Part shown: positions 33,631-52,559 of the stretch, piece after piece
Position numbering within the stretch: the first letter of the stretch is position 1
How the letters are laid out: each line of letters starts with the position of its first letter
NCBI GenBank assembly: GCA_950097015.1
Contig: CATNEN010000038.1
Location: 14,818,001 to 14,882,000 of the forward strand
Direction: 5' to 3'
DNA: 64,000 bases
Source of the DNA: Macrostomum hystrix
Lineage: Eukaryota; Animalia; Platyhelminthes
Notes under the pieces: generated by a model
Told to the model about the DNA's origin: nothing
The model's database searches: none
The model's input: only the letters and a program-made list of their open reading frames with translations
Translations under genes and position numbers: made by a program

Positions 33631-34200
33631 TCACAGATAATGAATTAAAACTCGTAAAACAAAAGATCGCAGTTTAACATAGGCTTTTCGGAAAGAATCA
33701 CTTCGCGAGACATTGCGCTTAGAAATACTCTTTAGAAAGACGTGCAGATTTTTTCGAATAGTCAATTTATAAAAGACATAAAATACAGCCCAAAAGCCAC
33801 AGCTACCGCTTCGAGGGTCTTGAACAGCAAAGCGAGTATAACTCCAATTTCTTGCCCCACCACATTGTATTCCTAACCAACGTGCCACAGATGCAATCGG
33901 ATGGAGTCCAAGTGAATCGAAATATTCTCCATATCTTTTACCCTGTCGACCTGCATAGGACGTATTTCCATGCACCCAAACACAAACCCAATGTTTTCCA
34001 GGTAGATTAGAAGTGTCTGTGTTTACAATAAAAAAATAATCCTTTTCATTAAGTGGAAGATGCTTAATACTTAATACAAAATCTTGGGGGAATACTCCTA
34101 AGAAGACAGCATGCGAAAAATAAGCGCACAGTTTTGTAGCAATAGACCGAAGAAATCGATCTGTAACACCGTTTTGTAGAATAGAATCAATTACTTCCAT
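33631..34200 (-). CDS. Adenain-like cysteine maturation protease (PRO)
   Basis: IVNTD...GKHWV, YFDSLG and VQ..SGSCGFW give the H/D/Q/C catalytic set. Confidence 0.92.
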   Translation of the reverse strand: MEVIDSILQNGVTDRFLRSIATKLCAYFSHAVFLGVFPQDFVLSIKHLPLNEKDYFFIVNTDTSNLPGKHWVCVWVHGNTSYAGRQGKRYGEYFDSLGLHPIASVARWLGIQCGGARNWSYTRFAVQDPRSGSCGFWAVFYVFYKLTIRKNLHVFLKSISKRNVSRSDSFRKAYVKLRSFVLRVLIHYL

Positions 34201-35513
34201 GCAGTTCCAGGAACAACGTCACGAAGCTCAGTTAGTTGCAATTGCTTGTCAAAAATTCCTCCAAATATGACGTTGTACACAGTGCTAGTTGCAGAACTGA
34301 ATCGCAGCTCAATTTTCACATTTCCTTCCTTATACAGTTGAACACCATGTCCGATACCTGGTTCACTACCGAGACTAAAGGCAAAAATAGAGTATCCATT
34401 CGCATATTCACCCATAGTGAAACCAATGTCACGTCCTTGCAGATAAAGACCCAGTTGCTGTAGAAGAAAAGTATACTCTGTCACACAGTCACCTTCAAAG
34501 TTGGTTTGCAGCGGTCGACATGGCATTGACTCTCCATTTACAAACACACCGATGCTGTTAACGTTAGCATGCTCAAAGTTGAATGGATTCGTGTCCATGC
34601 TTCCATTGAATGCTCGGTTATTTACAAAAGCTAATAATAAAAGCCGTGGAACTCCACTTGGGAATAAATTCTCGTGCGTGTGGCTGGATGATCCGCGAGG
34701 AATAGTAAATGTTCCCATGCTTAGACTCCGGTGGGGATATAGAGCATTGTGGCTTTTCAGACCATGTGCATGAGCACTAGTAACGCTAGGTGATGGTTGG
34801 ACAAGTCGCAGTCGTAATTCTGCTCGCAAGAACCTAATTTCATAATCTTTAAGTTGCACATCGCTTCCTATTGATGCACCACTCAAAACAAATTTGCTTT
34901 TTGCTGGTGTTAATTTGATACGCATTGGTGTCTTTGAAAGTAGATATCGCGGTTGACGAAAAAGATCTAAAAATAGAGGACCAGACACTGTACAATGTCG
35001 ATTTTCAGCAATCAACGATCGCCTCTTCGTTCGTCCTTCGTTATCGTTTGTTGAATTCATTTTACCAGCAGTATCTTTGTAGAAACCCCAAGGCACCAGA
35101 CCTGACTTCTGTGCTGTGTGTCCATACTCAAGAAGTGTTAGAAGCATTGCCTTGTAGGGATACATGAAGCTTCCACCTTCAACAACAGTGTCTCCAATAG
35201 TAAATTGCACATCTTCAAACAATGTTGCGATTGCTAAGTTGTTTACACACACATAGTTTTTTGCAGCATCAATTGCGTTACCTTCTCCGTCGCTGACGCG
35301 GAAGCTAACTGTTAGCACAGTATCATGCAGATCTAAATACAGATCTCCAGGCGGTACAATCTCAAACTCGATTGGAGAACCTTTTGTTATCCCATGTTGT
35401 GGTTGAATGTCTGTGTAGCGACTTTCTAAAACACTGAATTGAACAGGTGTCTGGTCAAAGAGAGAGAGTTCGCTTTTCAATGCAGCAATGTCGGGACCGA
35501 GAAGTTGATTCAT
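34191..35513 (-). CDS. Major capsid protein (double jelly-roll, PY/hexon-like)
   Basis: 440 aa; KSELSLF..TPVQ, PIEFEI..YLDL, LDLFRQPRYL, NPFNFEH and YANGYSIFAF are typical Polinton PY motifs. Confidence 0.9.
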   Translation of the reverse strand: MNQLLGPDIAALKSELSLFDQTPVQFSVLESRYTDIQPQHGITKGSPIEFEIVPPGDLYLDLHDTVLTVSFRVSDGEGNAIDAAKNYVCVNNLAIATLFEDVQFTIGDTVVEGGSFMYPYKAMLLTLLEYGHTAQKSGLVPWGFYKDTAGKMNSTNDNEGRTKRRSLIAENRHCTVSGPLFLDLFRQPRYLLSKTPMRIKLTPAKSKFVLSGASIGSDVQLKDYEIRFLRAELRLRLVQPSPSVTSAHAHGLKSHNALYPHRSLSMGTFTIPRGSSSHTHENLFPSGVPRLLLLAFVNNRAFNGSMDTNPFNFEHANVNSIGVFVNGESMPCRPLQTNFEGDCVTEYTFLLQQLGLYLQGRDIGFTMGEYANGYSIFAFSLGSEPGIGHGVQLYKEGNVKIELRFSSATSTVYNVIFGGIFDKQLQLTELRDVVPGTAWK

Positions 35514-35514
35514 G

Positions 35515-35949
35515 TTATTTTCCGAATAAACTAAAAAGCTTCTTGCTTGCAGCGGAGTTTTGCTTTCCTCTTCGTTTCTTGACTCTGTAGGTACTTCGTC
35601 CTCCTCGTCGTCTTGTTACACCTCGTTTTTTTCCTTTACGTCTTAAGCTTATAGGTCTAGCTGCTCTCTTTCGTCGCTTGTTGGTTAAGGTAGGCGTGTC
35701 AAACATGTCTTCTTCAGAAGTTGAGTTCGCGTGCCGCTTGCGCCCCATACCGATTTTGCTGGCAGCGCTTTTAAAATAATCTAGGCTGCGATCCAGAAGA
35801 TCCTTTTTAGCATTACGTATTACAGGAAATAGCAGTCTTTCAGCCAAGTTTGATAGGAATCCGTATCCTTCGTAGACGGGGATTGCAGATGCTCCTCGTC
35901 CACCGATTGAATTATTTGGACCGGAATAGAAGGCGAATATCGGATCCAT
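35515..35949 (-). CDS. Virion core precursor: protease sites, amphipathic helix, R/K-rich tail
   Basis: PVYEGYG|FLSNLAERLLFPVIR amphipathic segment; IGMG|RKR; protamine-like C-terminus; immediately upstream of MCP as in other Polintons. Confidence 0.7.
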   Translation of the reverse strand: MDPIFAFYSGPNNSIGGRGASAIPVYEGYGFLSNLAERLLFPVIRNAKKDLLDRSLDYFKSAASKIGMGRKRHANSTSEEDMFDTPTLTNKRRKRAARPISLRRKGKKRGVTRRRGGRSTYRVKKRRGKQNSAASKKLFSLFGK

Positions 35950-35982
35950 GACTTATTATTAAGCGATATCAGTTTTTCAGCT

Positions 35983-37134
35983 TTACTTATACACACGAGC
36001 AAACAGTCTAGCAGTCTTTGCATCGAGATCTTTTTCACTCAGCCACTGACTCCGTGAAATTGGCATGTCTTTCCACTTTACTAAATACAAACGATTACCC
36101 TTCTGCGAACGATCTGTTTCGAGAACCTTTTCTATATCGACAGGTTCCTCATCCACTTCATTCACGAGTAGAAGTTCATCCTCGTTGAATCTTCCTTCTA
36201 GCAAATCGAAATTATCTTCTGAATCAGCTAATTCATACATTGGCGGGTCAGACAGGTGAACATGATGAACACGAAACTTTGAATTGCTCCAAATTGTTGT
36301 GTAACCCTTTTCAAAAATTCCTCGTCGTCGGAGAATTCGCACCCAATCACCAACTTTGAATTTTGGTTTTGAAGTGCGCACTTGTGTAAACATTTTGTCC
36401 CATAGAATTCCTTGAAGATGTTCATCATTCTCTACTCGTTTCGGTGTTTCTCCACTTAAAGCTCGATGTGGACTTGCGTTGAAATTTTTCTCCAACTGTG
36501 GCAATATGTCAAACCAACGTGCTAGATTCTTAGCTCGAAAGTATCGTTGCAGGCGTTCTTTTAGAGATCGAATAAATCTTTCTGCCAGGCTAGCCTTGTA
36601 GGAACTTTGAGAAACGAAAAACCTCACTCCCTCCTGTTTTAGCATTTGTCGCGTTGATTTTCCAAGAAACTCCATGCCTGCGTCGCCTTGTAAATAAACT
36701 GGTTTGAAGCCACTTCGAAAAATATCTTGCAGCACTCGACTCACTTCGCTAGGTTTCTTTGTCTTTAATGGCCTAAGTCGAATGCTTCGCGTGAAGCAGT
36801 CAATTAGAACTAGTATGAAACGATAACCTCGATTTTCAGTTTTATACTGCGGCAGGTCGGCTAAATCGATTTGAAACTGGAATCGTGCCACGGGTGGTAC
36901 ACTAATTTTTGGTGTCAGAAATTTTTTAGGCAACTTTTGAAATAAATGGTGCTCTTTTGTTGATCGTACCCAACTTTGTACTTCCTTTCGTGCGTCTTCA
37001 TATTTTATCTGTGGAAATTCTTTGCGCACAGCACGAACAAGTTCAGATCTATTACCTGAGAACGAAGTCGGATTTTCCAAGTTGAAGAAAGAATCAGATA
37101 GAAACTGAGCAATACTTTTACGTATTCCTTGCAT
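35983..37134 (-). CDS. Retroviral-type (RVE) integrase with C-terminal chromodomain
   Basis: QIDLAD / LQGDAGMEF / LAERFIRSLK DDE triad; FKVGDWVRI..FEKGY; IEKVL...YLVKWKD...SQWL. Confidence 0.95.
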   Translation of the reverse strand: MQGIRKSIAQFLSDSFFNLENPTSFSGNRSELVRAVRKEFPQIKYEDARKEVQSWVRSTKEHHLFQKLPKKFLTPKISVPPVARFQFQIDLADLPQYKTENRGYRFILVLIDCFTRSIRLRPLKTKKPSEVSRVLQDIFRSGFKPVYLQGDAGMEFLGKSTRQMLKQEGVRFFVSQSSYKASLAERFIRSLKERLQRYFRAKNLARWFDILPQLEKNFNASPHRALSGETPKRVENDEHLQGILWDKMFTQVRTSKPKFKVGDWVRILRRRGIFEKGYTTIWSNSKFRVHHVHLSDPPMYELADSEDNFDLLEGRFNEDELLLVNEVDEEPVDIEKVLETDRSQKGNRLYLVKWKDMPISRSQWLSEKDLDAKTARLFARVYK

Positions 37135-37363
37135 TGATTGTATTGCAGCAAATGAAGCTTACGTCGATAACTGAATCACCGTCGGTTGTCTCGCTTTCAA
37201 AGCAGGAGTTAAATATGAGCGGACAGCAAGTTTCTAGCTGCAAATAATCAAAGAAACTCTGCAACAAAACTCTTAGGTTTGAACAGGTCATGACTTACAA
37301 ATTTATTAATTATCAAGTGTCAATAATGCATTATACCATACAATAATTAAAAGCACGCTTATA

Positions 37364-38482
37364 CTAAACATCTCTCTGATAATTTTCAAGCAGACTTAAA
37401 TCTTCGAGGTTCACCTCAGGTTCCTCAGCAATGGCAGTCTCAAACTCCTTTCGCACATGACGACCGACTTGGCTAGCTGTAACGCCTCGTTTCCGAAGAA
37501 ATTCAAGGAAATGTTGAAGACCGATTGGAGGTTCTTTTTCGTTTCGCTTTAGCGGTTTATCACGAACAATATATTCCATTAAATCTTGAATTTCATTTTC
37601 AGAAAAATCTTCGGGTAGAGGTTCCAACGATGAATCGTTTGAGAATAGATTTTTAGCGAGTCTATCCAGCCGAGAGCGGAAAGCCTTAGGAATTTGCATT
37701 CGATCTTGCATTTCGAATTGACTTGAAAAACTTTCGCGAACAGGTGCTGGTCTTTCCACTCCAGTGTGGTAGACTCTATGTGACTTTAACAATTTACTCT
37801 CCAAGTCAGATCTTTTCAGTTGAGCTGTAGAGGAGGGCTGCTTTTCAATTACATCATCTAGAGCATCAATTTCTTCTCGCATTGAAACTATATTCTTTGC
37901 TAGTACATCTCGCGGTGTCTCCAGAGCATCTGTTTTACGTACTAAGCTGCTTGATAGTATTTCGTCCTGTCTCTGTTGCATTGATTGATACATGCTTTCA
38001 GGAATCAGAAACATTCGCTGTAGTTCATTCGCATTTCGAGACTGCATGTTTAGTTTTTTTCGCTGAATTGCTCTAACTAAGTTTGCTGCACCGGCGGCAG
38101 TTCCAACAACACCAGAAGTAATTCCTAACGCTGTGCCTATAGCAGGTAGAGCGGCAATGATAGGAGCCAAGAACGGTAAAAACCCACCGTGCTGTACAAG
38201 GATTCTTCTTTTCTCACCAAGTGGAGTCTCTCTTTTTAATAGCTTTTTGATATACTTGCTATGTTTCTCAAGCCGGGTCTTGTTGCAGGAACTCACTTGA
38301 ACACGTCCGTTGACAATGTTTAGCAGAAACTCCACTAGACAGCGAATCTCTGCTTCTGTTAGAGTTTTCAAAAAGCTTTTTCGATGTTTTGGATTTCTCA
38401 GACGGCTTACAGCTTGTAAAACAAATGCACACTGAGATAGCGACTGAGCACTTCGCTTTATGTTTTCAGTAATGTTAGTCAT
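37364..38482 (-). CDS. Conserved Polinton QxGG|FL virion protein fused in frame to a second conserved ORF (internal Met146 at 38047)
   Basis: RCLVEFLLNIVNG..KRRILVQHGGFLPFLAPII motif; second part begins MQSRNANELQRMFLIP and ends PPIGLQHFLEFL. Confidence 0.7.
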   Translation of the reverse strand: MTNITENIKRSAQSLSQCAFVLQAVSRLRNPKHRKSFLKTLTEAEIRCLVEFLLNIVNGRVQVSSCNKTRLEKHSKYIKKLLKRETPLGEKRRILVQHGGFLPFLAPIIAALPAIGTALGITSGVVGTAAGAANLVRAIQRKKLNMQSRNANELQRMFLIPESMYQSMQQRQDEILSSSLVRKTDALETPRDVLAKNIVSMREEIDALDDVIEKQPSSTAQLKRSDLESKLLKSHRVYHTGVERPAPVRESFSSQFEMQDRMQIPKAFRSRLDRLAKNLFSNDSSLEPLPEDFSENEIQDLMEYIVRDKPLKRNEKEPPIGLQHFLEFLRKRGVTASQVGRHVRKEFETAIAEEPEVNLEDLSLLENYQRDV

Positions 38483-38519
38483 GGCAAGAAATGAGCTTCT
38501 TTTAGAAATTCACATTTGC

Positions 38520-39518
38520 TTATATACCATCAGACCGCAGACGAAAATGAAGCACGACAACTACATGCGCCTCCGAATGAAAATTGAATTCCTGTCCACG
38601 CTGATCCGAAAGGCGAATACCAATCTCACTTATTCGCTGACGATTGGTTTTTAGGTAATATGACTTTTGGAATGTGCTGCTTTCGCGAGTAAGTTCGCCG
38701 TCCTTCTTTTGCTGAAGTTCCACTACACGGAGCAATTGGACTGCAGTGCTTCCAACAGCCTGATGTTCGATTATATCGGTATAGCAGTACATGTAAACTG
38801 TTTTTGATGAAATTGGACGAGTCAAATTACTATCCAAGTAGGTCTTTTTGAAACACCACAATCGTCTAGCTCGCCAATATCGGAGCATATGAAATATTGC
38901 ATTATCATCACTAGTACTTATCAGTTCGACATCGTCTGAAACGAGTCGCATTGCCTGGCCAGGAAGAAGAATAAAATAGAATGTAAAAAATTGATCCGAA
39001 GGAATTACCAGAGACTTTACGGAATTCTTAATAAGATCTTTATAATTCCCATCTGCCGGTTGAAAACTTGCGTTTGTAGGCTCCGTTGAAAGGTCAGACG
39101 TTAGAGTCGTTATTATCTTCCAAGAGTTGAACTGATAGGTATCCATAAATGCGGCGGGTAGCTCAATTCCAAGCGCTTTTTCGCCAGCATTGCGCAGAAA
39201 CCATGAAAACCTTTCTATTGATCCAGCAGCTCGCCAAGAAACGTAGGCTTCCAAATCAGCCTCAGCCCAAATACGTTTCCAAATAGGAACAGACGATGCA
39301 AAAATTGGTTCAACATTAACATAGTATGGAACTTCAAATTGTCTTTCTCGATGAGCATTCGGTGTTGTATTTGCTCCACGACAGAGTAACTCTACTAGAG
39401 CAACTTCGTACAAACCAGCTGACAAGTTGAGTGGCTCAGCCAATCTTATTCGAAAATAATTCGGAGAATTATCTGAATAGCTAGTATCGTTCGAAGGTAA
39501 TGTTACGTAGAAGCTCAT
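38520..39518 (-). CDS. Minor capsid/penton protein (single jelly-roll, PX)
   Basis: MSFYVTLPSN..FRIRLAEPLNL..YEVALVEL N-half; MYCYTDIIE.Q.VG....LLRVV..I.IRLSDQ.G..LHFR C-half; likely ATG at 39518. Confidence 0.88.
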   Translation of the reverse strand: MSFYVTLPSNDTSYSDNSPNYFRIRLAEPLNLSAGLYEVALVELLCRGANTTPNAHRERQFEVPYYVNVEPIFASSVPIWKRIWAEADLEAYVSWRAAGSIERFSWFLRNAGEKALGIELPAAFMDTYQFNSWKIITTLTSDLSTEPTNASFQPADGNYKDLIKNSVKSLVIPSDQFFTFYFILLPGQAMRLVSDDVELISTSDDNAIFHMLRYWRARRLWCFKKTYLDSNLTRPISSKTVYMYCYTDIIEHQAVGSTAVQLLRVVELQQKKDGELTRESSTFQKSYYLKTNRQRISEIGIRLSDQRGQEFNFHSEAHVVVVLHFRLRSDGI

Positions 39519-39564
39519 TTTCAAAAATAAGTTTATGCGCGAAAATATTAATCAAGCGTACAAA

Positions 39565-40269
39565 TCAAAAATCGCTTATAGCGTTTGAAACACCAGCTTC
39601 GGAAGAACGTATGTATACAATATGACAATCACCAGGAAAAATACCTGTGCGAAGTCGTAAAAAATCTGGCGTTTTTTGACGCAAATCGATGAACAAATAG
39701 GAGTATGGCTTATTATTTGTTACATCTTCATATACATTTACTAAAAACCGACTATTGCGTGGAAACATTTGCCGAGCTAGATGCTCAACTGATGCACGAT
39801 CTCGAACACTACGAGTTAGGCAAATATAACTAGCTGATAAACTTCGCGTACGCGCCTCAGGATCTGATCGATTAAAGAGGTTCTGACAAATATAAAGACA
39901 CGTGAGTGGTGTATGATGGGCAAGCTTTGTAAACAGGCTAGTAAACTCAGCAGACTTCGTCACTTCACTTTGCAGGTCATCAACGACAACTAGATCGTTT
40001 GGCTTAAACCGAGAAGCCAGTTGAGCTGGAAATCCATTTACGAAATGAACAGGTTCATCTCCAGATTTATTCCAACACTTGATTATTCGTTGCTGATCGT
40101 CGGAAGTTAGGTTTGTACCATGACACCAAAGAAGACGCTGAGGTTTCTTATCAAATAGCTTATCTCGTTCACTTAGCAATCTAAGTGTCCATTCAGTTTT
40201 TCCAGAGTTAGACGGCCCCGCAATAATGAATGTTGAATCGTGAGCCAACTGCATGTTGAAAATTTCCAT
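39565..40269 (-). CDS. FtsK/A32-like DNA packaging ATPase
   Basis: Walker A GPSNSGKT, Walker B LVVVDD, LFTK..HH, ICQNLF, YSYLFIDL. Confidence 0.95.
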   Translation of the reverse strand: MEIFNMQLAHDSTFIIAGPSNSGKTEWTLRLLSERDKLFDKKPQRLLWCHGTNLTSDDQQRIIKCWNKSGDEPVHFVNGFPAQLASRFKPNDLVVVDDLQSEVTKSAEFTSLFTKLAHHTPLTCLYICQNLFNRSDPEARTRSLSASYICLTRSVRDRASVEHLARQMFPRNSRFLVNVYEDVTNNKPYSYLFIDLRQKTPDFLRLRTGIFPGDCHIVYIRSSEAGVSNAISDF

Positions 40270-40271
40270 TT

Positions 40272-40688
40272 CTAAGCACCAAAGCGTTGCTTCACCTGCA
40301 TAACTTTAGTTACAAGTTTGGCAGCTAGTTTCTCACTCCAACTTGTGGACGGATCGTTAGCAATTTCACGTGCTCCTGATTCTAGCACCTGGTCAGCCTT
40401 TAATCTTTCTTGAACGTCAGAATGTTGATCGTACGCTATGTCGTGAAGCATGCACAGATTATCAAGTCTATTTTTACCTCGTTGACCCTTTGTAAGTCTC
40501 TCTTGTAACTTCGTTCCTGGACCGCAAAACTGATATCCGCCAGGTAAATGTGCCTCAAACGGCAAATGATTGATTAACCAGTTCAGTACGCCGAAACCTC
40601 GCTGCTTCTTAATCGAGTTACTTGATCTCTTGATTTGAAATGATGACTTTCTTAAACTCTTAGCTGATCTTTTCTTACTACGTGCCAT
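40272..40688 (-). CDS. Parvovirus-type phospholipase A2 virion protein
   Basis: HLPGGYQFCGPGT (Ca loop), LDNLCMLHDIAY (HD catalytic), R.KAD; basic leader ending QRGFG. Confidence 0.92.
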   Translation of the reverse strand: MARSKKRSAKSLRKSSFQIKRSSNSIKKQRGFGVLNWLINHLPFEAHLPGGYQFCGPGTKLQERLTKGQRGKNRLDNLCMLHDIAYDQHSDVQERLKADQVLESGAREIANDPSTSWSEKLAAKLVTKVMQVKQRFGA

Positions 40689-40823
40689 TCTGGAGATTTT
40701 AAATTACCAACAAATTCCGAATTAGCTTATAGTGTATTAACAAAAACAAGAAAAAGAACAAGATTAACATCAAGAATATAATAATTGGAGACAAAAATAT
40801 GATTAGTGTCATTATTCGCAGCG

Positions 40824-41282
40824 CTAAAAGTTGTCAGTGCTACCAAACCCACCATACTTGCGCTTGAGTGACGGTTCAGTCATGTGACAGACTGACTCAT
40901 CCTCTAAAACTAAAACAGGTACAATGCTTGCTTTCTCTAAAATTAGTTGAGCAATGCGCAGTCCGGGGTAAAAATTAAAGTCATTTGGACTGTGATTGTA
41001 CAACACAACCATTATTTCGCCCGTGTAATCCGGATCAACTACACCACCTTCAACAGTGATGCCTCTTGTGCTGAGGCTGGAGCGCGTAGCGATTCTCCCG
41101 TAGGTGTCCTTTGGTACTTGAATCGATACGCCTGTTCGAATCGTTAGGCGATCGTAGCCTCCAACACTTCCCTCGACAGCAGCAGTCAGATCATAGCCAA
41201 CTGAGCCTTCAGTTTTGCGAACTGGAACATTAGCTGTTGGCAGAAGAAGCCTCACACGCAGGACGTTGCTATCAGTTGCCAT
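40824..41282 (-). CDS. dut: Trimeric dUTPase
   Basis: All five motifs present: GYDL, RSS, GVVDPDYTG, AQL, RKYGGFGST. Confidence 0.95.
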   Translation of the reverse strand: MATDSNVLRVRLLLPTANVPVRKTEGSVGYDLTAAVEGSVGGYDRLTIRTGVSIQVPKDTYGRIATRSSLSTRGITVEGGVVDPDYTGEIMVVLYNHSPNDFNFYPGLRIAQLILEKASIVPVLVLEDESVCHMTEPSLKRKYGGFGSTDNF

Positions 41283-41622
41283 TGCAGAACTTTAGAGCTG
41301 AGGGGAAAATGGTTGTTAGCGTTTTACAAAGTAGTATAACTAAATCCTGATTATAATCTATTTATTATCTCCAAAAACTTGCTAGTGATTGTGATATACC
41401 TAAGCTAAGTACTACAAAAATTAACTAAAGATAAATACACAAACTTGGATTATATAAATACTTATAATGTCACCAATATAATTACAACATTCAAATGTAA
41501 TCATAATTTGATCAATGTCTATATTGACAAGAATGAAATACAAATCACAAAAAGGAAAAATCATTTGATATGATTAAAGCGAAAGTCAACATTGGGTGAT
41601 GTAATTACAGCAATCAATATAA

Positions 41623-44600
41623 TTACAAACGCCAATGACCAAATGGCAGCGAACTATAGTCGTTAATCCACGCGCGCTTAGTATCAAAAAAACTCAAGGC
41701 CAATTTGCGTTGCTGCAGTAGAAACACGCGTTGTTTGCGGGATCTGATGCTTTGCATTCGTGCAAACATGACTTGGCGCTTGTGTAGAACTCTTAGATAA
41801 TCTGTGTGGCGAATGTTTTGAGCAACAGTTTTGCAGACACCCTTACATCGCGAAATTTGTGTAATACTCTCGCCAGTAACCAAGAAGGAATAGTTCTTTG
41901 GTCGAAGAAAAGCTAGCTCCAAAGGCACACGTCCCTTGAACTCATCCTTCCAGGCTAGCAGTCTACCCTTGTTGACTGTAGAGTATAACGGATGCGATGG
42001 TGGATAGTTGCTAGTATCCAAGAGACCTTGTTCAGCCAAGTCTTTAAACAGCGTCTCGTACGGTGTCTCATTGTTTCGTCGCATTACAAGTGCTAACATT
42101 AGACTATCCGTATCACCGCCGAGAACGCGCGCACTGGCTAGTGATCGATGCGATTGAACATGGTTGTAAAAAAACTCATAAACTAGAGTTTTTGCAATGT
42201 CCAAAATTGCAGCTCCTATAATAATTGGCTTGTCCAACATTACACGCTTTGATGCAAGGGAGACTCCAGCAAGGCTTTCTGTATAAACAATAGCATCCAG
42301 AAAGTTGGCGCTTCCAATATAGCACTCAAACCGTTCTGCAAGTGAACACATTCTGTAAATGAGACGATCGCGAACTCGTTGCAGAAACTTGCCAAAGAGA
42401 GCATTATTTAGCAGCTTGAAAAACTCTCTCTCAAACTCTGTCTTAGCTGCTTTTCGTTGATCAATATTGCGCTCAATGTAGGTTTTTAAAATGGCCAGCT
42501 CGGTAAAGCGAATCACACGATGAACACGCGTCACGCGCATACCTAACTCTAGGTAAAATCTAAGAGCTCGATGGTGGACAACATAGTTCAACTTGTGCTG
42601 CACTGATCCAATCAACTTTCGCGTAGGGCTCTTGAATGGTTTTACGTCCTCATAGCATGTTGCATTCTTATATCGCTCAGGATTAAGTTCACGTTGAAGA
42701 CTAAACCAGTCTGCCTTCATCTGATCTGTTAGTCGCTCTTCGGCAATCATTTCGTGTGCAATGGCTAGGGGCAAATCAGCAGTACTGTCATGTAGAAAAT
42801 GCGGATAATACAAATCAACTGTAAGCATGGCTCCTTGGTCCTCTTTGCAATAGTTTACCAACCAGTTCAATAATCGGCTCTTTACAGTCGAATTCTCAAA
42901 ATAGTCTGCCGAAGGACTGTCAAACGGAATCGCTGACAAGTCGCTACGTGACAACCAAGCAAAGTCACCAACTGGCAGCGGTTGAATCATGCAGCTCGAA
43001 TACAATGAGTTAGCATCCAAGTAAGCCAAATAAGTATCTCTAGGCGCATTCTGTCGCATGTTGGAAAAATCTGCTTCAGTCTGATCTAAGATGCTTCTGC
43101 ATTCTTCGACACACGGATTGTTTGCCGTTGTTATGTGTCGTGTTCCAAAGCTGAAACCGCCTCGAATCGAATGCTCAACTTCAGCATACATGCTAGCATC
43201 GGTAAATAATTGAATCGGTCGATCAATCTGTCGCAAACATGCTACCAAGCTAAACATTGGAGCACCCAAAAAGTGACTAGGATCAAGACCATACTCTCGC
43301 TGTGCTGTCTGACGAAAGTTTTCAAAGACATCGCACAAGAGCAAAACATCAAGTTGAAGATAGGCGGTTGTATAATCTCTAAGGTTTTTACAGTCAAACT
43401 CGAACCATGCTGCATGAGCTCGCTCATAGTCCACATCTAAACAATCTGACATCGTAAGCTTGTTGAAAAAGCATGCCTTGGGTGGAAGACTTGTCACACT
43501 ATCCAGCTTTTCCTCACAGTCTAGAAACGAATAGGGATAGACACCCTTTTGACGAAGAGTTGAAAACTTCAACCTCGGGTATGCATTCATTAGTTCTCGT
43601 GTGTGTACCAGCTGTTCTGGAAGAAGACGATCTGCCAATGTTGACAAGCTTGTTGACAAGTAGGCAAACGTGTCTTTGAAGCAAATTTCAAACTTGTGAG
43701 TCTGATCAGCAGCCTTTACACGAAACTTGAGTGAAAATGTCTTGAATCGCTCGCGATTCTCCGGTAGCACATGAAGTTGAACCTTGGATCCAGAAAAAAC
43801 TTCATAAATTTCTCGCACTAGAAACTTGCCATCATACGAGGCTAAGTTATGAAAATAAACAATGAGACGATAGCGCCTAAGAGTCAACTTCCTGTTGCAA
43901 GAGACACACAGCACGCCACGTGGAAGACCTGTCAAGTGACAATGATCAAGTACCTTCTTTTCATCCTCTTCAAATGATTTCTTGCACAATTGACACGCTG
44001 CAATTTCTGCCTTGGACTTGCTTAGATGTAAATACTTGCGCAAAAGTGGAGTGTAGGATTCACTTTGTGTATGTAGACAAATTTCGCTAGCAATCGTTTC
44101 AAGTCGCCGCAAAAATTGTCTAACACAATTCTCACCATTTGGCGGTGTGTAAATCACCTCACACGGTTTCTCTCTGCTCATGCCAACAGCTGCCTTTAGG
44201 CGAGGCGTCAATTTCAGTTCTGGACAAGTTACTAGTCGATAGGCTAAACAAATCGGTTCATGCACCTCAAGCACATTACCCGCCTGATGCTTGTCTGGCG
44301 GCGCGCAAAGACACTCCATATCAGCATACATGACATACAGTGACGGTAGCTGAGCTTCAAAACTCTTGAATTTGACGTGCGCATCCTCTTCTCGTGGCAT
44401 TCTTTCTACTGGCTTATACTTTGTCTCGCGAATCTGTGGTACAACATCTGAAGTCCACTCTTCGATGGCAGTGGACTTTTCATTATTATTATTTACACAA
44501 GAATGCACATTTAAAATATAATCCCAAGAAGTGATGCATGGAAAAGAAACTAGGCAGTCGGAACAAAACCTCCGTTGTTTGCTGCGTGTACTCATTAAAC

Positions 44601-45762
44601 GATTCAAATTCTTGACTGGCATGTAATGTCCAAACGCAAATTGTCCGTAACGCGGTACAAACAAGCAATTGGCAAAATACCTATCACCTTCACTGTTGCT
44701 TCGATGTGAAAAGAAGAGAGTATTAGTCTTTTCTTCATGATTCCAGACAAAGACACGGAGACTAAGCTTAGGATTCTTGCGGCAAAACTTTCTATACGAT
44801 GATTTGGAATGCCTAGCTGGTCCATTTGCGAATCGGCCAAAGTTGAACTCTCCCTGCCACTGCGCATAGCTCGACTTTTTACTTGGGTTCGTTGTGTAAG
44901 GATGAAACACACTCGCGATAATAGCCCAACGAAAACAATCCAACTGATTAGCTCTGTGCGGCTTCAAGTACAAGACTGCACCAGTCTTTCGGCCAATAGA
45001 AATCGGTACCTTGAAGGCTTGTCGTTTCGGGTCGGATCGGGTCGGTTCGGTTCGGAACGGGTCGCCACGCGCGCGCCCGCCCGCCCGCCCGCCCGCCGCC
45101 CTCGCGGCGGGCCCCCCGCCGGCTCCTCCGCCACCTCCAAGCTCGGTTGAATTGATTAATCGAGCTCTGGTTTTGCGGTAAATGCATAGCATTAGATCAA
45201 GTTGTTCAATGTGCTCAAATTGCCAGTTACTACCGCGTGTTTGGAAGTTGTCAATTTTTGTTACTAGAGTGGAGATTACGCGCGAAAACCAGTCATTGAA
45301 TGCATCTGGTGATAGAGTCAAGTCACTATTTGCCATTGTCGTCTCGTCAAATGTTATTGTTGCCATATTGGTGTTAAAGTAGGCAGAAATTGTTTCGATA
45401 CTCTCACCATCTTCTGACTTTGGACGAGATAACTTCACTTTCAGATGGACACAGGTTCGCAGCATTAGACCGGCTGAACCAATCTTTTCAAAGAGGTTGT
45501 ATATCGGTTCTCGAAGATTGGCAATCAGTTCGCTAGGTAGTCGCTGTTGTTGCTGTGGTCTGAATTCGACAAAGTTGACACGTCCCTTGTGGCTTGATTC
45601 GCGTAGCACAACAGACCAATCATTGGGAGGATTGTTAGTCAGACGGTTAATAGGTGCAGAGAGCAGGTTTTCAGGCGCAAAGCACTCGCCATGCGAGTGT
45701 GCATGCAGTTCCGCCTGACCGCTGAAAACGCGTTGGCAAACATTGCACCTTGCTCGAGGCAT
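41623..45762 (-). CDS. Protein-primed DNA polymerase B with N-terminal Zn finger/terminal protein, OTU-like and EndoVII/HNH modules
   Basis: Exo YADMEC, FHNLASYD; pol YLDANSLY, KLLNNALFGK, GDTDS, CKGV; CQLC...DHCHLTG.PRG..CVSCN (EndoVII); DCFRWA/GHY (OTU-like Cys/His). Confidence 0.96.
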   Translation of the reverse strand: MPRARCNVCQRVFSGQAELHAHSHGECFAPENLLSAPINRLTNNPPNDWSVVLRESSHKGRVNFVEFRPQQQQRLPSELIANLREPIYNLFEKIGSAGLMLRTCVHLKVKLSRPKSEDGESIETISAYFNTNMATITFDETTMANSDLTLSPDAFNDWFSRVISTLVTKIDNFQTRGSNWQFEHIEQLDLMLCIYRKTRARLINSTELGGGGGAGGGPAARAAGGRAGGRARGDPFRTEPTRSDPKRQAFKVPISIGRKTGAVLYLKPHRANQLDCFRWAIIASVFHPYTTNPSKKSSYAQWQGEFNFGRFANGPARHSKSSYRKFCRKNPKLSLRVFVWNHEEKTNTLFFSHRSNSEGDRYFANCLFVPRYGQFAFGHYMPVKNLNRLMSTRSKQRRFCSDCLVSFPCITSWDYILNVHSCVNNNNEKSTAIEEWTSDVVPQIRETKYKPVERMPREEDAHVKFKSFEAQLPSLYVMYADMECLCAPPDKHQAGNVLEVHEPICLAYRLVTCPELKLTPRLKAAVGMSREKPCEVIYTPPNGENCVRQFLRRLETIASEICLHTQSESYTPLLRKYLHLSKSKAEIAACQLCKKSFEEDEKKVLDHCHLTGLPRGVLCVSCNRKLTLRRYRLIVYFHNLASYDGKFLVREIYEVFSGSKVQLHVLPENRERFKTFSLKFRVKAADQTHKFEICFKDTFAYLSTSLSTLADRLLPEQLVHTRELMNAYPRLKFSTLRQKGVYPYSFLDCEEKLDSVTSLPPKACFFNKLTMSDCLDVDYERAHAAWFEFDCKNLRDYTTAYLQLDVLLLCDVFENFRQTAQREYGLDPSHFLGAPMFSLVACLRQIDRPIQLFTDASMYAEVEHSIRGGFSFGTRHITTANNPCVEECRSILDQTEADFSNMRQNAPRDTYLAYLDANSLYSSCMIQPLPVGDFAWLSRSDLSAIPFDSPSADYFENSTVKSRLLNWLVNYCKEDQGAMLTVDLYYPHFLHDSTADLPLAIAHEMIAEERLTDQMKADWFSLQRELNPERYKNATCYEDVKPFKSPTRKLIGSVQHKLNYVVHHRALRFYLELGMRVTRVHRVIRFTELAILKTYIERNIDQRKAAKTEFEREFFKLLNNALFGKFLQRVRDRLIYRMCSLAERFECYIGSANFLDAIVYTESLAGVSLASKRVMLDKPIIIGAAILDIAKTLVYEFFYNHVQSHRSLASARVLGGDTDSLMLALVMRRNNETPYETLFKDLAEQGLLDTSNYPPSHPLYSTVNKGRLLAWKDEFKGRVPLELAFLRPKNYSFLVTGESITQISRCKGVCKTVAQNIRHTDYLRVLHKRQVMFARMQSIRSRKQRVFLLQQRKLALSFFDTKRAWINDYSSLPFGHWRL

Positions 45763-45961
45763 TTGATCATTATGGCTGTAATTAAATGAGTAGGTTAATA
45801 GTTAATGAGTGAATAGAAAAAAAAAAATTGAAATGTGTAATTGTTTTACAAACTAGGTATAAAAGTTTTTTTAAAAAAAAAAACGAGAGGAAGGATAATA
45901 GATACTTTGTTTTTAAATGAAAGAAATATTGTTGGTTTAAAGGGTTTATTTGATTAACAGA

Positions 45962-46687
45962 TTAACAGATTGATTGCAGCGCGTGTTTAAGAAGACTGAG
46001 CACGAATTGCAAATCTTTTTCTCCTCGTACACCCATAATGACAAATTTTTTTGAAAAAAATATGTTACAAAAAAGCCTAGGATTAGAAATTGATCGAATT
46101 GAAACTGCTTGAGGAAAGTTTTCAACATCGTATGATATTTTATAGTTTGAGTGATGACCGATCATTGATTTTAGCAGCTGAAAACAGTTATTTGGCCAAT
46201 AAAAATCATCAATAAAACCTACATAGGTACTGGTTTGAAGTCTGATTGAGTCGAAATCTATTGCGTAAAGGTTATCATTAATAAAGCGTAAAGCACAAAT
46301 TAATTGCCAATTTGACAAGCAACCAAATATTGAAATTTTGCCACTCGGATAAAACTGAACAGTTAGATTGGAAAAGCACGTCTTTAGCATAGTTGGTCTG
46401 TTTCGAAATAATTTGCAAGCACAACCTTTTGATTGTAAAATTAACTCGATTAGCTTCAAATCGAAATTCTCACATTGGCTAGGATTTAGAAGACTGGCGC
46501 TAAATATTAGGAGAACAAGCCGCTGGAAACAGTAAGGAAGGACTTGTGAAAATGGGCTTTCAGTTTTATCGGCTAATAAAAAAATTGGAATAACCGAGTG
46601 GCGTGCGAAATAATTAAGACCTATACGAGCGTATGGATGGTAAAATAATAAAAATACAAATAATGAAGTTATTCTGCAAAGAGTCAC
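45962..46687 (-). CDS. Divergent TATA-binding-protein (TBP)-like protein; true 5' end probably spliced
   Basis: Two TBP-repeat-like halves: FDLKLI...TVQFYPSGKISIFGC and SYDVENFPQAVSIR...FCNIFFSKKFVIMGVRGEKDL (compare TBP ALIFSSGKMVCTGA and YEPELFPGLIYR..LIFVSGKVVLTGAK); no in-frame ATG before the domain. Confidence 0.7.
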   Translation of the reverse strand: MTLCRITSLFVFLLFYHPYARIGLNYFARHSVIPIFLLADKTESPFSQVLPYCFQRLVLLIFSASLLNPSQCENFDLKLIELILQSKGCACKLFRNRPTMLKTCFSNLTVQFYPSGKISIFGCLSNWQLICALRFINDNLYAIDFDSIRLQTSTYVGFIDDFYWPNNCFQLLKSMIGHHSNYKISYDVENFPQAVSIRSISNPRLFCNIFFSKKFVIMGVRGEKDLQFVLSLLKHALQSIC

Positions 46688-46696
46688 AATAATGAT

Positions 46697-48023
46697 TTAC
46701 TCATCTGAAGACAATGAATCAGTAGAGTCGGAGTCGGTGTCGTCTAAGTTCGACGCCACTCGGTTTCCTTCTTGCGGCGCACTCACCAAAGCCTTGGCTG
46801 GTGGCGATTGAATCCAATCGATATTGTCAGTAGCCGTCTTTGATCGCTTATTTGTCTTGATTGCGGGGCTGGTAACCGGTTTGGAACGTTTCTTCGCAGC
46901 AGGCTTCTTGGTTGGTGATGGGCTTCGAGCGGGAACGTGACCTTTCTGCTTGTTGGCTGGGTTTGGTGAAGCGACTCTGGATGAAGAAGAGCTTCTGTGC
47001 TCACCAATCGCAGTCTTGATATGCTGATGCACTAAACTCAACATGCTGTTATCGGGAGTCGGACGAGTCTCCTTAATCAAAATTATCGAACGCACACACA
47101 AGGTTAACCTCCACGTGATGCTACCTTTCGGAGAGAAAAGACTCACTCCTTGAAGCGAGACTAGATATTTTCCGCTCAAACCCTTGAAGTCGGCCAGTGG
47201 AACTTCGACTCCGTCAGGATTTGCTTCATTCACCATGAAGGTGGCGCACGGGTATGCTGCCTTGATTGTGATCCACTGCTGCTGCCTATTATTCAGCACC
47301 TCTTCATCTGACAATGTCTTCGTTAGTCGCACTAGCGTTCGTGCATCGCCAATTTCACGCAGTTTAGCTTCGAGACCTCTTTCGATAACTCTGGATAAAA
47401 AGAGAGGATTAAAATCCAAGTTAGACGTTGCTTGAGTTTAGGAAAAAATTATTCGCTAGATAAAAAAGCTGCAGCAATTTACAAAATTATAACCTGTACA
47501 CTTGTATGCTGGTTGAATTGAAGGTAAATATTAGTTGTAGGGAGAACAAACTCTAGTTCCATTCAGAGTGGATGCATAATAAACCATTAAATGCATAATT
47601 TAATTTCGTGTCTTAGTTTTGTTGCTTAGACTCTATAATTTGGCTATAAGAACTATGAGGTAGGTTACTATTGACAAATACAAGCTTTATGAGGAAATGT
47701 AAAACACATAATTATACTCACCGAAGGCAGTCGACTAAATCCTGATCACAACACTCCTTTCTAAACGTTATGCCGATGACATCGCGTGAGTCATACTTGC
47801 TAGCTGTCTCGTATTCCGGTCGCTCGGTGATGCCTCGAAGTAGCTCAACTGGACCGGCGGACTGGAAGATGATCGGGCGCCAGCCCTTTGCCTCTGCAAG
47901 ATCTGACTTCCAACCAACCGATCGAAACAGACACGAACCGTTGACTGGCGACTCAATCTCGCCAATGTGGAAGATAGGTCTCATGTTAGGCTTTAGCAGT
48001 GATTCGGCTGCGTAGTAAGACAT
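46697..48023 (-). CDS. Spliced 331-aa protein, join(48023..47722,47390..46697); putative ssDNA-binding protein
   Basis: Donor CG|GTGAGT (47721) and acceptor ctaac..ctctttttatccag|A (47391) are both phase 2 and restore frame; beta-rich core, basic NLS-like linker, acidic tail DDTDSDSTDSLSSDE. Confidence 0.7.
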
Positions 48024-48093
48024 TCTTGCTGCTAGCTGGTGTAGTGATTAGAAAGCCGAGGAGCTTATGAAAAGACCAAAATTTTGAAACTTG

Positions 48094-48101
48094 TATTTAT
48101 A
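48094..48101 (-). promoter_or_regulatory. Canonical TATA box (TATAAATA) upstream of the SSB-like gene
   Basis: ctataaata ~70-78 nt upstream of ATG 48023. Confidence 0.55.
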
Positions 48102-48808
48102 GAAGCGAATCGAACACGAATCACCTGCTGATAGTAACTGCACGATGCTTTTATGATAGAAATTAAACTAATTTGTTTACAAGTCAAAGTCATTAAGGAA
48201 ATTATAGTCAATTGTTGAAGCTCATCTATTGATAGCAACTGCACGAAGCTTTTTATGTGGAAACTAATTTAATTTGCTATAGGTTAAAATGTAATTTGAG
48301 TCAACAGTTGAAAGTAATTTTGACGGCACGTAGCAATGATAAGATTTGATTGCATAGGTATAGAGCTTTAATTATTGAATTTCATCATTCGGTAAACATC
48401 ACAAGTGAAAAATTTGAATAGTATAAATCTTTGTAGCTAGATTTTCTTGACTTTGAAGGGTTAATTAAATACACGTACTGCCTTAAAAGAAGCTTGTGGG
48501 TTTTCAGTAACATGATATTTTACTAAGTTAGCGAGAACGGTGTGTGGGAGGGAGAACTTAGATCTTAGTTTACTAAATTAATTTTTATAATGAACTGAAG
48601 CATACTGATTAAGCATATAGTTGTTGACGATAAAATGTTTGATATACTAGTCGAAAACATAATTTTAAATTATACGAGTTTTTTCGATTTCAGTTTTAAG
48701 TCGGTACGTTTATAGTAAACAGATTGGCTTTAGTCCCCTTTAGATATACATAGCTAGGTTAAGATATTACGAGCGTTGTTTCGGTTTAATTTTAGATAAT
48801 TTAGCAAA

Positions 48809-49299
48809 ATGGTTTCTCAAACACAAAGCTTAGTTTTAAATAATTTATTGACAAGCCACGCTAGAATTACACAACAAAATAGTCTATCTATTGGCAACCT
48901 TGTTAGAGGTTTAGTTTTAGTGCAGCAATCGCTTGACTCTATCAAGCTTGCAATTATCTTTTTGATGATAGCTATAACTTTACTAACTTTAGGATTAATT
49001 GTAATCATGATTCGACGTGTTAGACGTAATACTTCAACTTGTATATCAGAAGAAGGACAAGCTGGAGCTATGTAAGTATTGATTAAATAAATGCTTCTGC
49101 TGTATAAATCGGTTAATAAACTCTTTAGATTAAATAATATCCCCCATATTTGACTTTTAGAACCGACTGTTCGACTCTAGAAGTAAACAATGGGCAGGTA
49201 CATTCAATTACAATGACGCCACTTCAAGTAGCAATGTCAACACCAAAACCTGTCCTACTGATGAGCACCACTGAAGAGTCTGATGCAACTCTTGTCTAG
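48809..49299 (+). CDS. Spliced 133-aa single-pass membrane protein, join(48809..49071,49161..49299)
   Basis: TM segment LAIIFLMIAITLLTLGLIVIMI followed by RRVRR; AT|GTAAGT donor and ttttag|A acceptor in frame; ends ESDATLV*; AATAAA ~49426. Confidence 0.65.
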
Positions 49300-49965
49300 A
49301 CTTTAAGGTTTTTGTCAAGTGTAACAATATTTTTCATAGTGTCTATAAGATCAGTCTGATCACTACTTTAATTGATATATGTGAGCATGTGTGTGTGTGT
49401 GTGTGTGTGTATACATTTGCATTTAAATAAAGCGCAAGTTATTTTTATTAATAGGTATCTCATTGATTTTCAATGAATTATTGGTGTGTAATACAGGTAG
49501 TAGATTTTACTTAGTTTCATATTATTTCTATATCTCTGCATTTTTGTTTGAGCATCATTTATTTTTCATTTAGTGTATACAATGTAAAAAGTTTAAGTTT
49601 CATTATCATTCGTCTGATCTCTTGAAATACAGTAGCTTATCAATGATGACTGTTTAGGTAGGTCTGTCTTGAGAGTACTGTTAATGTGCTACAATTTTAT
49701 CTTAGGTTTAGCTTCTTATTCTTTCTTTAGGACTAGCATTTGATTAAAAGTAAAATTTGATCATTGATTTGCATACTTAAAAATGTTTTCTTTTGTAACA
49801 GACTAAAGCGAAAATATATTTTGTTAGTACAAGTATGTTTTGAGCAGAAAGAAAATCTTTTTTTTTGTATTGAGGTAAAGCATAAATATATTTACAGACT
49901 TCGATAAAATACAGTTATTGAGTCAATGCAAAATTATAAAAATGTTGATTTTTGTCATTTCTTCA

Positions 49966-50277
49966 TTAGTTAAGCTGTGACTGGATACTCAGCCAGGCTT
50001 CGACTTGGAATTCTAGTCGGCTACGCCACCAGGTTAGTCGTGTCGAGGCCCATGTCCTGACTTGTCGAGCTGCACTGCGTATTACACACTTCAGCCAGTA
50101 GCCGCGATTTCTTGTTGCAGATATCGTGTCCTCGGGCCAGCTCTCCTCGATGAAGCTTTCTAGCTCAGTTAAGAGCTTGACGAGTTGCACCCATTTACGA
50201 TTATTCATCTCCGTCTGATGAATTATAGATTGCTGGCTTCGCATTATCCCGACGATAGGAAGGTTGACAGAATTCAT
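49966..50277 (-). CDS. Hypothetical 103-aa Polinton protein
   Basis: ATG ORF in AT-rich context next to the right TIR, TATA-rich upstream. Confidence 0.45.
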   Translation of the reverse strand: MNSVNLPIVGIMRSQQSIIHQTEMNNRKWVQLVKLLTELESFIEESWPEDTISATRNRGYWLKCVIRSAARQVRTWASTRLTWWRSRLEFQVEAWLSIQSQLN

Positions 50278-50419
50278 TTCAATTCAAATCAATTCAATTC
50301 AATTCAATATCAATTCAATTCCTTGCTAATTCCAGCTTGAAGTTGTAGTTTGTCTTATAATCCTTGAAATATATATACTATCGGTAAATGGTAGGCACGT
50401 TTGAAGAGATGTGTGATTT

Positions 50420-50876
50420 TTAGCATGTGCGAAATTAAAGACAAATTGCTGCAGGAATGAAAAGCTTCGTGCTGAATCTGATGAATAAGAAAGTAACAAC
50501 ATTTTGTGACTGAATGATTTGGCGAGTTAGTGTAACAATCTCAATAATTCGACGTGCATTAACTCTCGACAGTGGCAACTTGCAATGAAACTGATTCAAC
50601 ATGCTCGTTTCAGAAAGTTGCTGCGTCTTTGAATTCTAACCTGCAAACTTAATGAGCAGTTAGTTGGACTAGGAATTTTTTAAACAACATGCCAAGGACA
50701 GATAGAGAAGAGAGAGAGAGAGAGAGATTTTTGACTTAGAAAATTCCTCGTGCGAGTTAGGACTTAGAAATTTTTTGGAGCGTTTTGAGTTAAATGTATA
50801 GGTATTTCCTATGCGGTACTACCTATGTATTTCTCCATAAGGAAAACGCGTTTGTTTCATATTTTTTTATACTACT
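50420..50876 (-). repeat. Right terminal inverted repeat
   Basis: Reverse complement of 33010-~33515. Confidence 0.9.
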
Positions 50877-52559
50877 TCCCTGAGGTACCGGGCGAGAAGC
50901 TGGATGCTCTCGGGCCTGCAAACGTATGTAGAGATTTTGTCGAAGTTATTTTATCAATGCATGCCCTCGTAAAGACTGGGCAACGACAGAAAAAAGTGTT
51001 ACGCATTTTCACGAAGGACTGCAGGGCAGAAAAGACACAGCTCCATGGAATCTGGGCCCGGAAGAAGAGGCGAAAACAAAAGCAGCTGAGTCCTAAAAAA
51101 GACCATATATATACTGACTGCTTTGACGTCCCTGACGTCCCTGAGAGCTGACGGCGGCCCTAGACTGCACTGGCGACTGTTCTGGGTTTTGGACCACGAA
51201 CCACAGCTCCTGGTGTTTGGATTTTATCCAGATCGCGCCTTACTACTCGTGTACTAGATGGGATCGGGGCCTTGACTCCCGGGCCGGTCCGGGAGCCTTC
51301 TCGTTTCTCAGCCGTGAAGCCCCCCGCGCATGCCCTTGGAGGAGAGCCTGTTAAGTTGACGGTTGCAATCTAGGGTGATTTTGGAGTTGGTAGAAGGACC
51401 AACGAAAGCCTTGAGGGAAGCCCATGACTATCAGAATGAAAAAAAAGATCTTCCGCCCAGAAATCCCTCTTCTCTGGTGCATCTCTGCCGCGCTGAAACA
51501 GATGGTGAGCATCTCCGTTCTGAAAAACACTAGCTGGAATCGTGCCGGCATTGCATTAGAGACGAAAGACCTCGCCAAGTGTAAAGGCCGAAGATGCCGT
51601 TCATCATATGGAGCCATCAGTACAACGACTGAATGTCTAGGGTCTATACGAAATTTTACTGCTACAGACCGCCAACAGACGTCAATAGACCGTCAACAGA
51701 CGTCACGTACACAAACCTATTAAAGAATAACATATAGACTCGAAGCGTGTCGACTTCCCATCATTTCCGGTAAATTCTACTTTATGCAGCAACAATGGAG
51801 CGATTAATTTAAAGAAATTAGCTGGCAGTCGATCTGCAGCACTGTTGGACGCTTTCAACAGTTTCTAGCGCATCTGGTTGATTTTATAAGGCCGTATTTG
51901 GAGACAGTGCGCAAAAAAGACATAATTGTCAACTGCATCCTGCAGACTGTGGCGATTTTTATTGGGTTTTTATAGCCACTGGAGCGCAAAAACTGTACTT
52001 GCGGAGAAAAATGCGCCATTTTCCATTGCTGGATACAGACGCGCAACAACTATTATAAGAGTCTGGCGTCGACCAAAATGAAATTTTCCCAAAGAATCTT
52101 CTATTCAACGCTCAATTAACGACACCATCCCTCGGTAGCCGTGCTTTTCTTAAATGAGATCGTCTTGCAGTGGCTTGCATCTATTTTAGAGTTCGAAATT
52201 AATACAATTTAATCTCCATCTATTACTTAAGGAATTAATACTCAGAATGTTTTCGTTTATATTTTTTACGGATTTAAACCATGTATTGGATATTGAAATT
52301 AACAAATTACATTGGCAGTTTTTGCAAAGTAAGATTTTAAAGGTGAAGAAATTATTTATAACAACATTTTAAAAACATTTGTATTTGTATACAGCTTATA
52401 TAAAATACATTGTAAAATGTTTACTATGATTGCTTTATTTTATTTAACAGGTTCATTTTTACACGAAATAAAATAAATAACATTCATTTGCTTATATTGT
52501 TTAGTTTTTTAGTCCTCAATTTTTTGCCAAAAACAACTCAATTATTTTGCGAATCTATT

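Follow-up and report, generated by a model that had tools for sequence, protein, structure and literature searches.

Does a Polinton encode a TATA-binding protein (TBP) of its own, and if so, which promoters would such a protein serve? The question arose from an open reading frame just upstream of the protein-primed DNA polymerase gene (pPolB) in a 64-kb window, the whole stretch of DNA analyzed here, in which an earlier note had recognized two TBP-repeat-like halves. The control of Polinton capsid genes has been little studied, as has the question of whether an integrated copy can proceed to making particles, and our literature search found no paper on the late promoters of animal Polintons.

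An intact Polinton-type element

The frame lies within an intact Polinton/adintovirus-type element of 17,867 bp (positions 33010 to 50876) with AGTAGT...ACTACT termini, pPolB, and an integrase. The terminal inverted repeats are about 0.5 kb each (left, 33010 to 33507, plus strand; right, 50409 to 50876, minus strand) and are identical at 405 of 466 aligned bases. A 6-bp target site duplication, TCCCTG, flanks the element on both sides (33004 to 33009 and 50877 to 50882, plus strand). Inverted repeats, (AGT)2 ends, and a 6-bp duplication define Mavericks in the available text of PMC8097293, and the element matches this definition. Of the Polinton hallmark genes, pPolB scored over the Pfam cut-off and the rve integrase, which carries a chromodomain, just below it (E = 4.6e-7). 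The large frames of the element are on the minus strand throughout. As far as Polintons/Mavericks and Alpha adintoviruses are described in the available parts of PMC8097293 and PMC8502044, the element shares with them pPolB, rve integrase, PLA2, the (AGT)2 ends, and the 6-bp duplication, together with a candidate protease and a putative ATPase identified by weak matches. Intact vertebrate Mavericks are reported there to be intronless (PMC8097293), whereas introns are predicted here. TBP is absent from the eight vertebrate core genes given in the same text; the earlier note likewise placed TBP outside the Polinton core set.

Four DNA runs from one study, one of which may be the origin of the window sequence, covered 29 to 30 of 30 element bins. 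Two of the four showed a different flank at the right end of the element, which indicates at least one further insertion. Run X1 contained near-identical copies of the element and, beside them, relatives that had diverged further and carried internal deletions. An A+T-rich arm of about 2.3 kb (48100 to 50400), with short ORFs only (a 63-aa Cys-rich ORF and one of 103 aa), was strongly variable among copies.

Elsewhere in the window, a 3.7-kb element (7136 to 10883) is likely a nonautonomous DNA transposon; its inverted arms are long (448 nt at 97% and 227 nt at 94%), and it contains no ATG frame of 100 aa. A tandem array (23563 to 25020) is open on both strands for 447 to 485 codons and has a 12-residue repeat. 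Host-like exons encode a DnaJ domain (26724 to 27275, followed by a GTGAGT donor) and an MFS transporter (60016 to 62170). Such spliced genes in the flanks, together with the adintovirus-type gene content of the element, suggest an animal host.

The frame upstream of pPolB encodes a TBP fold

The TBP-like frame (46696 to 45962, minus strand) comprises 244 codons from stop to stop and ends 200 bp ahead of the pPolB ATG at 45762. Both motifs quoted in the earlier note for the two halves were found in it letter for letter. Pfam family PF00352 matched in two stretches with 29.8 to 31 bits (cut-off, 22.9; E = 5.5e-7) and was the only family found up to an E value of 1; when each half was searched alone, TBP was again the sole Pfam match, below the cut-off (E = 0.042 and 4.8e-4). 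Sequence comparison with the PDB to an E value of 10 gave 19 matches, every one a TBP (best, 0.006). The ESM Atlas gave TBP clusters at 0.95 to 0.96, with a recognition value of 2003, below the 2300 mark. With a profile built from the protein and four relatives, the matches to TBP chains extended over both lobes (E = 8.9e-7 at best).

An alignment-guided structure model (pLDDT of 93) displayed the two-lobe saddle and gave 44 PDB matches at an E value of ≤0.001, with a TM score of about 0.7 and TBP chains in the listed rows; this model leans toward the TBP fold, since 38 of the 44 rows in its alignment were canonical-type TBPs. The alignment-free model was poor (pLDDT of 51) and still ranked TBPs first (E = 0.003 and weaker). 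These results confirm a true TBP fold for positions 45962 to 46522. The protein is not a canonical TBP.

Relatives form a group separate from canonical TBPs

A protein search of 1.84 billion representatives gave six matches at an E value of ≤0.001, four at 41 to 47% identity and two at about 30%. All six were single-member clusters from contigs of 1 to 4 kb, and five were nameless. No relative was found among 49 candidates by a single-sequence word search, while a profile search of 6,490 candidates of 78 to 450 aa returned the same four relatives and nothing more. A search over all lengths gave none longer than 257 aa among the matches listed. No loci of relatives were detected in viral contigs searched with the TBP, its profile, the sequence P0126, the capsid protein, and the ATPase, or in metagenome contigs searched with the TBP profile and pPolB.

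In a phylogenetic tree, the five family members formed one group (97/95), which was joined to P0126 (100/98) and was far from 21 canonical TBPs and from P0125; the window's copy was the longest branch within the family. The tree gives no origin: long branches meet in it, and it contains no archaeal or host TBP. The separate, long-branched group, together with an identity of 15 to 20% to 10 canonical-type TBPs, agrees with the earlier view that the protein is too diverged for a recent host capture. On a viral contig (L001, 12 to 1304), a near-canonical TBP adjoins another frame, whose sequence pattern resembles that of a giant-virus capsid protein.

The TBP domain is likely a spliced last exon

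Upstream of the TBP-like frame lies an SSB-like gene with two predicted exons on the minus strand. Exon 1 (47722 to 48023) starts with the ATG at 48023 and ends at a GTGAGT donor in phase 2; exon 2 (46697 to 47390) contains an acidic tail. The ESM Atlas led from exon 2 to DUF2738/DUF5871 clusters (0.91 to 0.92, with the family on 10 to 12% of members), a family to which we ascribe an SSB role, and exon 1 presumably belongs to the same gene type, as it fits an SSB-like sequence pattern; neither exon gave a direct match to an SSB. An assignment of exon 1 to an OTU domain was dropped, since OTU lies within pPolB (PMC11161782) and the SSB pattern fits better. A canonical TATAAATA (48094 to 48101, minus strand), the sole one on the element's minus strand, is located 78 nt upstream of exon 1. 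Immediately upstream of this box, a segment of about 90 nt occurs as two imperfect direct copies (48270 to 48125), possibly an enhancer.

The start at 46687 given in the earlier note did not hold: the codon there is GTG, the sole in-frame ATG (46390) is inside lobe 1, and the domain begins at about 46522. With no usable ATG, the TBP domain (186 aa, 45962 to 46522, minus strand) is likely the spliced last exon of the SSB-like gene, as judged from the sequence. The open in-frame stretch ahead of it (46523 to 46696) is likely intronic and ends in a pyrimidine tract and a CAG acceptor (46525 to 46523). This best acceptor has 15 pyrimidines in 18 positions, and coding would resume at 46522, precisely at the TBP core start. 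A candidate phase-0 GTGAGT donor (46781 to 46786) is predicted to yield a 264-nt intron; joining 46522 to this simplest donor, after 46787, would link the domain to the SSB-like protein in a fusion of about 488 aa, a length beyond the profile search described above, which spanned 78 to 450 aa. An alternative phase-0 GTGAGT donor is found at 47146 (after 47147), and three of the five GTGAGT sequences on the coding strand are within 0.94 kb upstream of the acceptor. Two relatives have a glutamine at the acceptor position, following nonconserved residues, which is possibly a read-out of the CAG. An AATAAA (45945 to 45950, minus strand) follows the TBP stop by 12 nt; no other AATAAA or ATTAAA occurs between 47604 and this signal, which fits a common 3′ end.

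Upstream of the acceptor, the differences listed between copies numbered at least six in 174 nt, six of six changing a residue; the 561-nt domain had at least two, one of them silent (Fisher P = 0.003 for two versus six). In run X1, a single 739-nt contig spans the TBP domain with one letter changed and no gaps within the domain. The 174 nt (58 codons) upstream of the acceptor contain no in-frame stop up to that of the SSB-like gene, as found in 179 of 3,000 shuffles (6%). The 5′ structure may therefore be a different one: splicing might use a phase-2 acceptor at 46673, translation might begin at a non-ATG codon, or read-through might occur. Three short contigs from two runs under another organism label (possibly DNA) contained no splice joint: one covers 45943 to 46189 with one gap, one lies inside predicted intron 1, and one is a partial match. 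A fair splice acceptor is also present at 45775, 13 nt ahead of the pPolB ATG and in the same phase as the exon 1 donor. The pPolB and SSB-like genes may thus share a leader; the adenovirus E2 unit displays comparable leader sharing.

The DNA face is altered and the TFIIB glutamate E188 is kept

Residues are given in yeast numbering, taken from Table 1 of PMC12529657, and the family comprises this protein and the four relatives. Among the intercalating residues, F190 and F207 are kept in all five members, while F116 is replaced by tyrosine in all five. F99 is probably lost; the sequence alignment places F39 there, and the model strands place R42/P43. The canonical set of four intercalating phenylalanines (F99, F116, F190, and F207) is therefore incomplete. 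P191 is kept in four of five members and V213 in five. By sequence, the DNA face is more polar than in cellular TBP: L205 is asparagine (5/5), L114 is glutamine (4/5), V122 is serine or threonine (5/5), V161 is threonine (5/5), and L189 is asparagine in this protein. Further changes across the family are N159T, T215M, and mostly T124F. Both central asparagines are altered here, N69 to leucine (glutamine in two relatives) and N159 to threonine. In canonical TBP, the 5′ half of the box is read by the C-lobe and the 3′ half by the N-lobe. C-lobe intercalators that are kept and N-lobe intercalators that are altered would fit a box that retains TATA and changes base 6. A yeast L114 mutant is said to read TATAAG; this was not used as evidence.

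On the partner surfaces, the TFIIB glutamate E188 is kept in all five members. The TFIIB contact is nevertheless uncertain, since E186 is aspartate here but asparagine or serine in the four relatives. Helix H2 has one lysine or arginine here and zero to two across the family, versus five in a yeast TBP, and the N-lobe stirrup is shorter than in cellular TBP. The basic N-lobe patch, which serves TFIIA, TAF1, Mot1, and Brf according to the available text of PMC7221094, is missing. With the TFIIA/TAF1/Mot1/Brf1 surface lost, the protein would be unable to replace TBP generally. The earlier description as the element's "own basal transcription factor" thus stands with respect to the genuine TBP fold, whereas "basal" is too strong. 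Compared with cellular TBP (PF00352; 1ytb and 1cdw), the protein shares the two-lobe saddle (TM score of about 0.7), F190, P191, F207, V213, and E188; it differs in overall sequence (about 20% identity), in the altered N69, N159, T124, T215, L114, and L205, and in the missing H2 patch.

TATAAG precedes most genes downstream of pPolB

The remaining genes, all on the minus strand, were inspected for upstream motifs. The pPolB gene (41623 to 45762; 1,379 aa; PF03175, E = 5.5e-20) contains an in-frame, G+C-rich, microsatellite-like stretch (45020 to 45140) that codes for a Gly/Ala/Arg-rich insert. It is followed by a dUTPase gene (40824 to 41282; TATAAG at 41466, −184) and a gene for a PLA2-like protein (40272 to 40688; TATAAG at 40731, −43). 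The putative packaging ATPase gene (39565 to 40269), identified by weak P-loop matches, adjoins the PLA2 stop, and its 250 upstream nucleotides contain no TATAAG. The frame at 38520 to 39518 (TATAAG at 39580, −62) is a putative minor capsid protein gene, going by position and sequence pattern. Downstream lie genes for a protein with a pX-like segment (37364 to 38482; PF05829, E = 3e-5, below the cut-off; TATAAG at 38524, −42), the chromodomain integrase (35983 to 37134; TATAAG at 37363, −229), and a small basic protein (35515 to 35949; TATAAG at 35991, −42). A 57-aa Cys-rich ORF (37291 to 37118), which has no Pfam match, begins 72 nt after the integrase TATAAG and overlaps the integrase start. 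The frame at 34191 to 35513 (TATAAG at 35653, −140) putatively encodes the major capsid protein, again going by its sequence pattern. Both putative capsid frames are of fitting size and gave no Pfam, PHROG, or PDB matches. The cysteine protease (33631 to 34200; S273R, E = 0.007; TATAAG at 34334, −134), like the ATPase, gave weak matches only. A TATAAG also precedes the 103-aa ORF of unknown function in the A+T-rich arm (49966 to 50277; TATAAG at 50359, −82).

In an unbiased hexamer count over the 150 nt ahead of the nine genes from dUTPase to protease, TATAAG ranked top and was found for six, at −42, −42, −43, −62, −134, and −140; within 250 nt, eight of nine genes had the motif. The element contains 11 TATAAG on the coding strand versus 2 on the opposite strand, and the 46 kb outside it contain 10 per strand. 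The region from 33631 to 41600 has 8 TATAAG (shuffle mean, 2.0; maximum, 6 in 300 shuffles), while TATAAA is at chance level there. Without a position term and with all hexamers allowed, the enrichment is modest: some hexamer reached six of nine in 61 of 3,000 shuffles, 81 of 3,000 sets of nonoverlapping random windows, and 459 of 5,000 sets of overlapping ones. Three genes at one offset occurred in 51 of 3,000 cases. A joint test of six of nine plus three at one offset, picked after the data had been seen, gave 0 of 3,000 and 2 of 3,000. Counter-cases are the boxless ATPase, two TATAAG inside pPolB, and the dUTPase and integrase, which are non-shell genes. The pairing of protein and box rests on one element.

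Possible roles of the protein

We consider it fairly probable, at roughly 0.6, that the protein serves the element as a late-gene factor of its own, recognizing TATAAG and working with host TFIIB and RNA polymerase II. Host TBP would start the SSB/TBP/pPolB unit from the canonical box. Splicing would yield the TBP-like factor, which would then bind and bend TATAAG ahead of the genes predicted to build the particle and turn the TATAAG genes on by bringing in host TFIIB and RNA polymerase II. With its basic N-lobe patch absent, the factor would evade eviction by Mot1/BTAF1 and dispense with TFIIA/TAF1.

A more tentative version adds replication. An alternatively spliced SSB-TBP fusion might ride on replication single-stranded DNA and fire TATAAG promoters on replicating copies only. 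If so, one gene would provide the late switch of a two-phase program, making particle production dependent on replication and leaving integrated copies silent.

Much less probable is a decoy or repressor, with host TBP reading TATAAG weakly and the element's protein titrating TFIIB or blocking TATA promoters, either those of the host or the element's own early ones. An invariant E188 beside altered N69, N159, T124, and T215 would suit such a protein, and TATAAG is one base apart from TATAAA. The DNA-face changes are, on the other hand, fixed without drift among relatives at 40 to 44% identity, and the decoy model does not require the later genes to have a box of their own or the replication unit to have a canonical one.

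Slightly less likely still is a function at the replication origin. A perfect TATA sequence, TATAAAAAA, is present at nt 6 to 14 of both element termini, and the SSB-TBP fusion might bind and bend it to aid protein-primed initiation; at the adenovirus origin, host factors assist initiation. The location of the TBP gene between the SSB-like gene and pPolB is consistent with this role, as is the simplest predicted splice, which would join TBP to the SSB-like protein. But A/T-rich ends require no TBP, and the TATAAG boxes and the kept E188 would be left unexplained.

We regard as improbable that TATAAG is read by the polymerase of a coinfecting virus, as with virophages, the TBP being otherwise employed: TAAG is the baculovirus-type late start motif, and the spacing of −42 to −62 is compatible with a start within the motif, but the 5′ TA is fixed too, and at three boxes an ATG follows within 9 to 24 nt, which an in-motif start would include and a start 30 nt downstream would skip. 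To our knowledge, no helper virus is known here. Equally improbable is an unexpressed or decaying passenger that has lost its start codon and yields no full protein; no ATG precedes lobe 1, the window's copy is on the longest branch, and two internally deleted run X1 variants (joints 41246-47177 and 44459-47780) skip the TBP gene, yet the frame is uninterrupted, the element's core frames are intact, listed differences are sparser in the domain than before it, and the relatives likewise have no common methionine at the domain start.

Comparison with known viral TBP systems

The late-gene factor reading resembles the beta- and gammaherpesvirus system (KSHV ORF24, EBV BcRF1, and HCMV UL87), as the earlier note had proposed. 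In the available text of PMC12529657, these proteins are virus-encoded TBP folds in which F190, P191, and F207 are kept, and KSHV ORF24 is likewise polar at L114, V122, V161, L189, and L205 (Table 1). Both systems have a short noncanonical box before structural genes and no viral RNA polymerase. The boxes themselves differ, TATT(WAA) in the herpesviruses (same text) versus TATAAG here. ORF24 has 752 aa, a polymerase II-binding N-terminal domain, and a place in a six-protein complex, whereas the element's protein is a 186-aa domain; no match to that N-terminal domain or to the five partner activators was found among the element's frames, several small ones of which carry no assignment. ORF24 retains F99, N69, and N159 but not the acidic residues for TFIIB (PMC12529657), whereas the element's protein keeps E188. 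With both asparagines altered and F99 probably lost, the element's protein may bind DNA weakly or in another manner. The analogy thus holds for the gene-linked noncanonical box and the polar DNA face but not for the polymerase II-binding domain, the partner genes, or the box sequence. By this comparison, the element's protein probably works like the herpesvirus system yet is not a member of it.

Nucleocytoviricota encode their own RNA polymerase. The nearest Atlas clusters and BFVD matches of our protein were Nucleocytoviricota TBP-like proteins, at 7 to 20% identity and with no close sequence link. They, too, are viral TBP folds that lack the N-lobe signature of eukaryotes, and a TFIIB-like gene was found in nearly every viral genome that has a TBP-like one (PMC7221094, available text). 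Neither a TFIIB-like gene nor an RNA polymerase was found in the 18-kb element.

For a midsize pPolB virus, a MELD virus with an adintovirus-like PolB, a "TBP" label appears in the Fig. 5 legend, in the section on nonanimal data sets (Starrett et al., PMC8502044/10.1101/697771). It is similar in placing a TBP-like gene in such a virus and differs in being a label alone, with no sequence analysis, promoter, or function in the available text. The text of the animal adintovirus maps there carries no TBP label; the supplement may name more TBP genes. VLTF3 has been reported from some polintoviruses (PMC11131425, available text). The main texts of PMC11161782, 10.64898/2026.06.19.733378, PMC10748475, PMC11131425, and PMC8097293 do not mention TBP or TATA, and we found no paper linking a Polinton TBP to a promoter.

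If the late-gene factor reading is true, this element would be another case of viral late transcription by a TBP mimic, apparently separate from those of herpesviruses and giant viruses, and one in a far smaller genome, probably with host TFIIB. The element's protein would be a natural altered-specificity TBP, useful for the study of TATA recognition. Together with a box dedicated to it, a private TBP would constitute a testable switch and provide a sequence marker for late genes.
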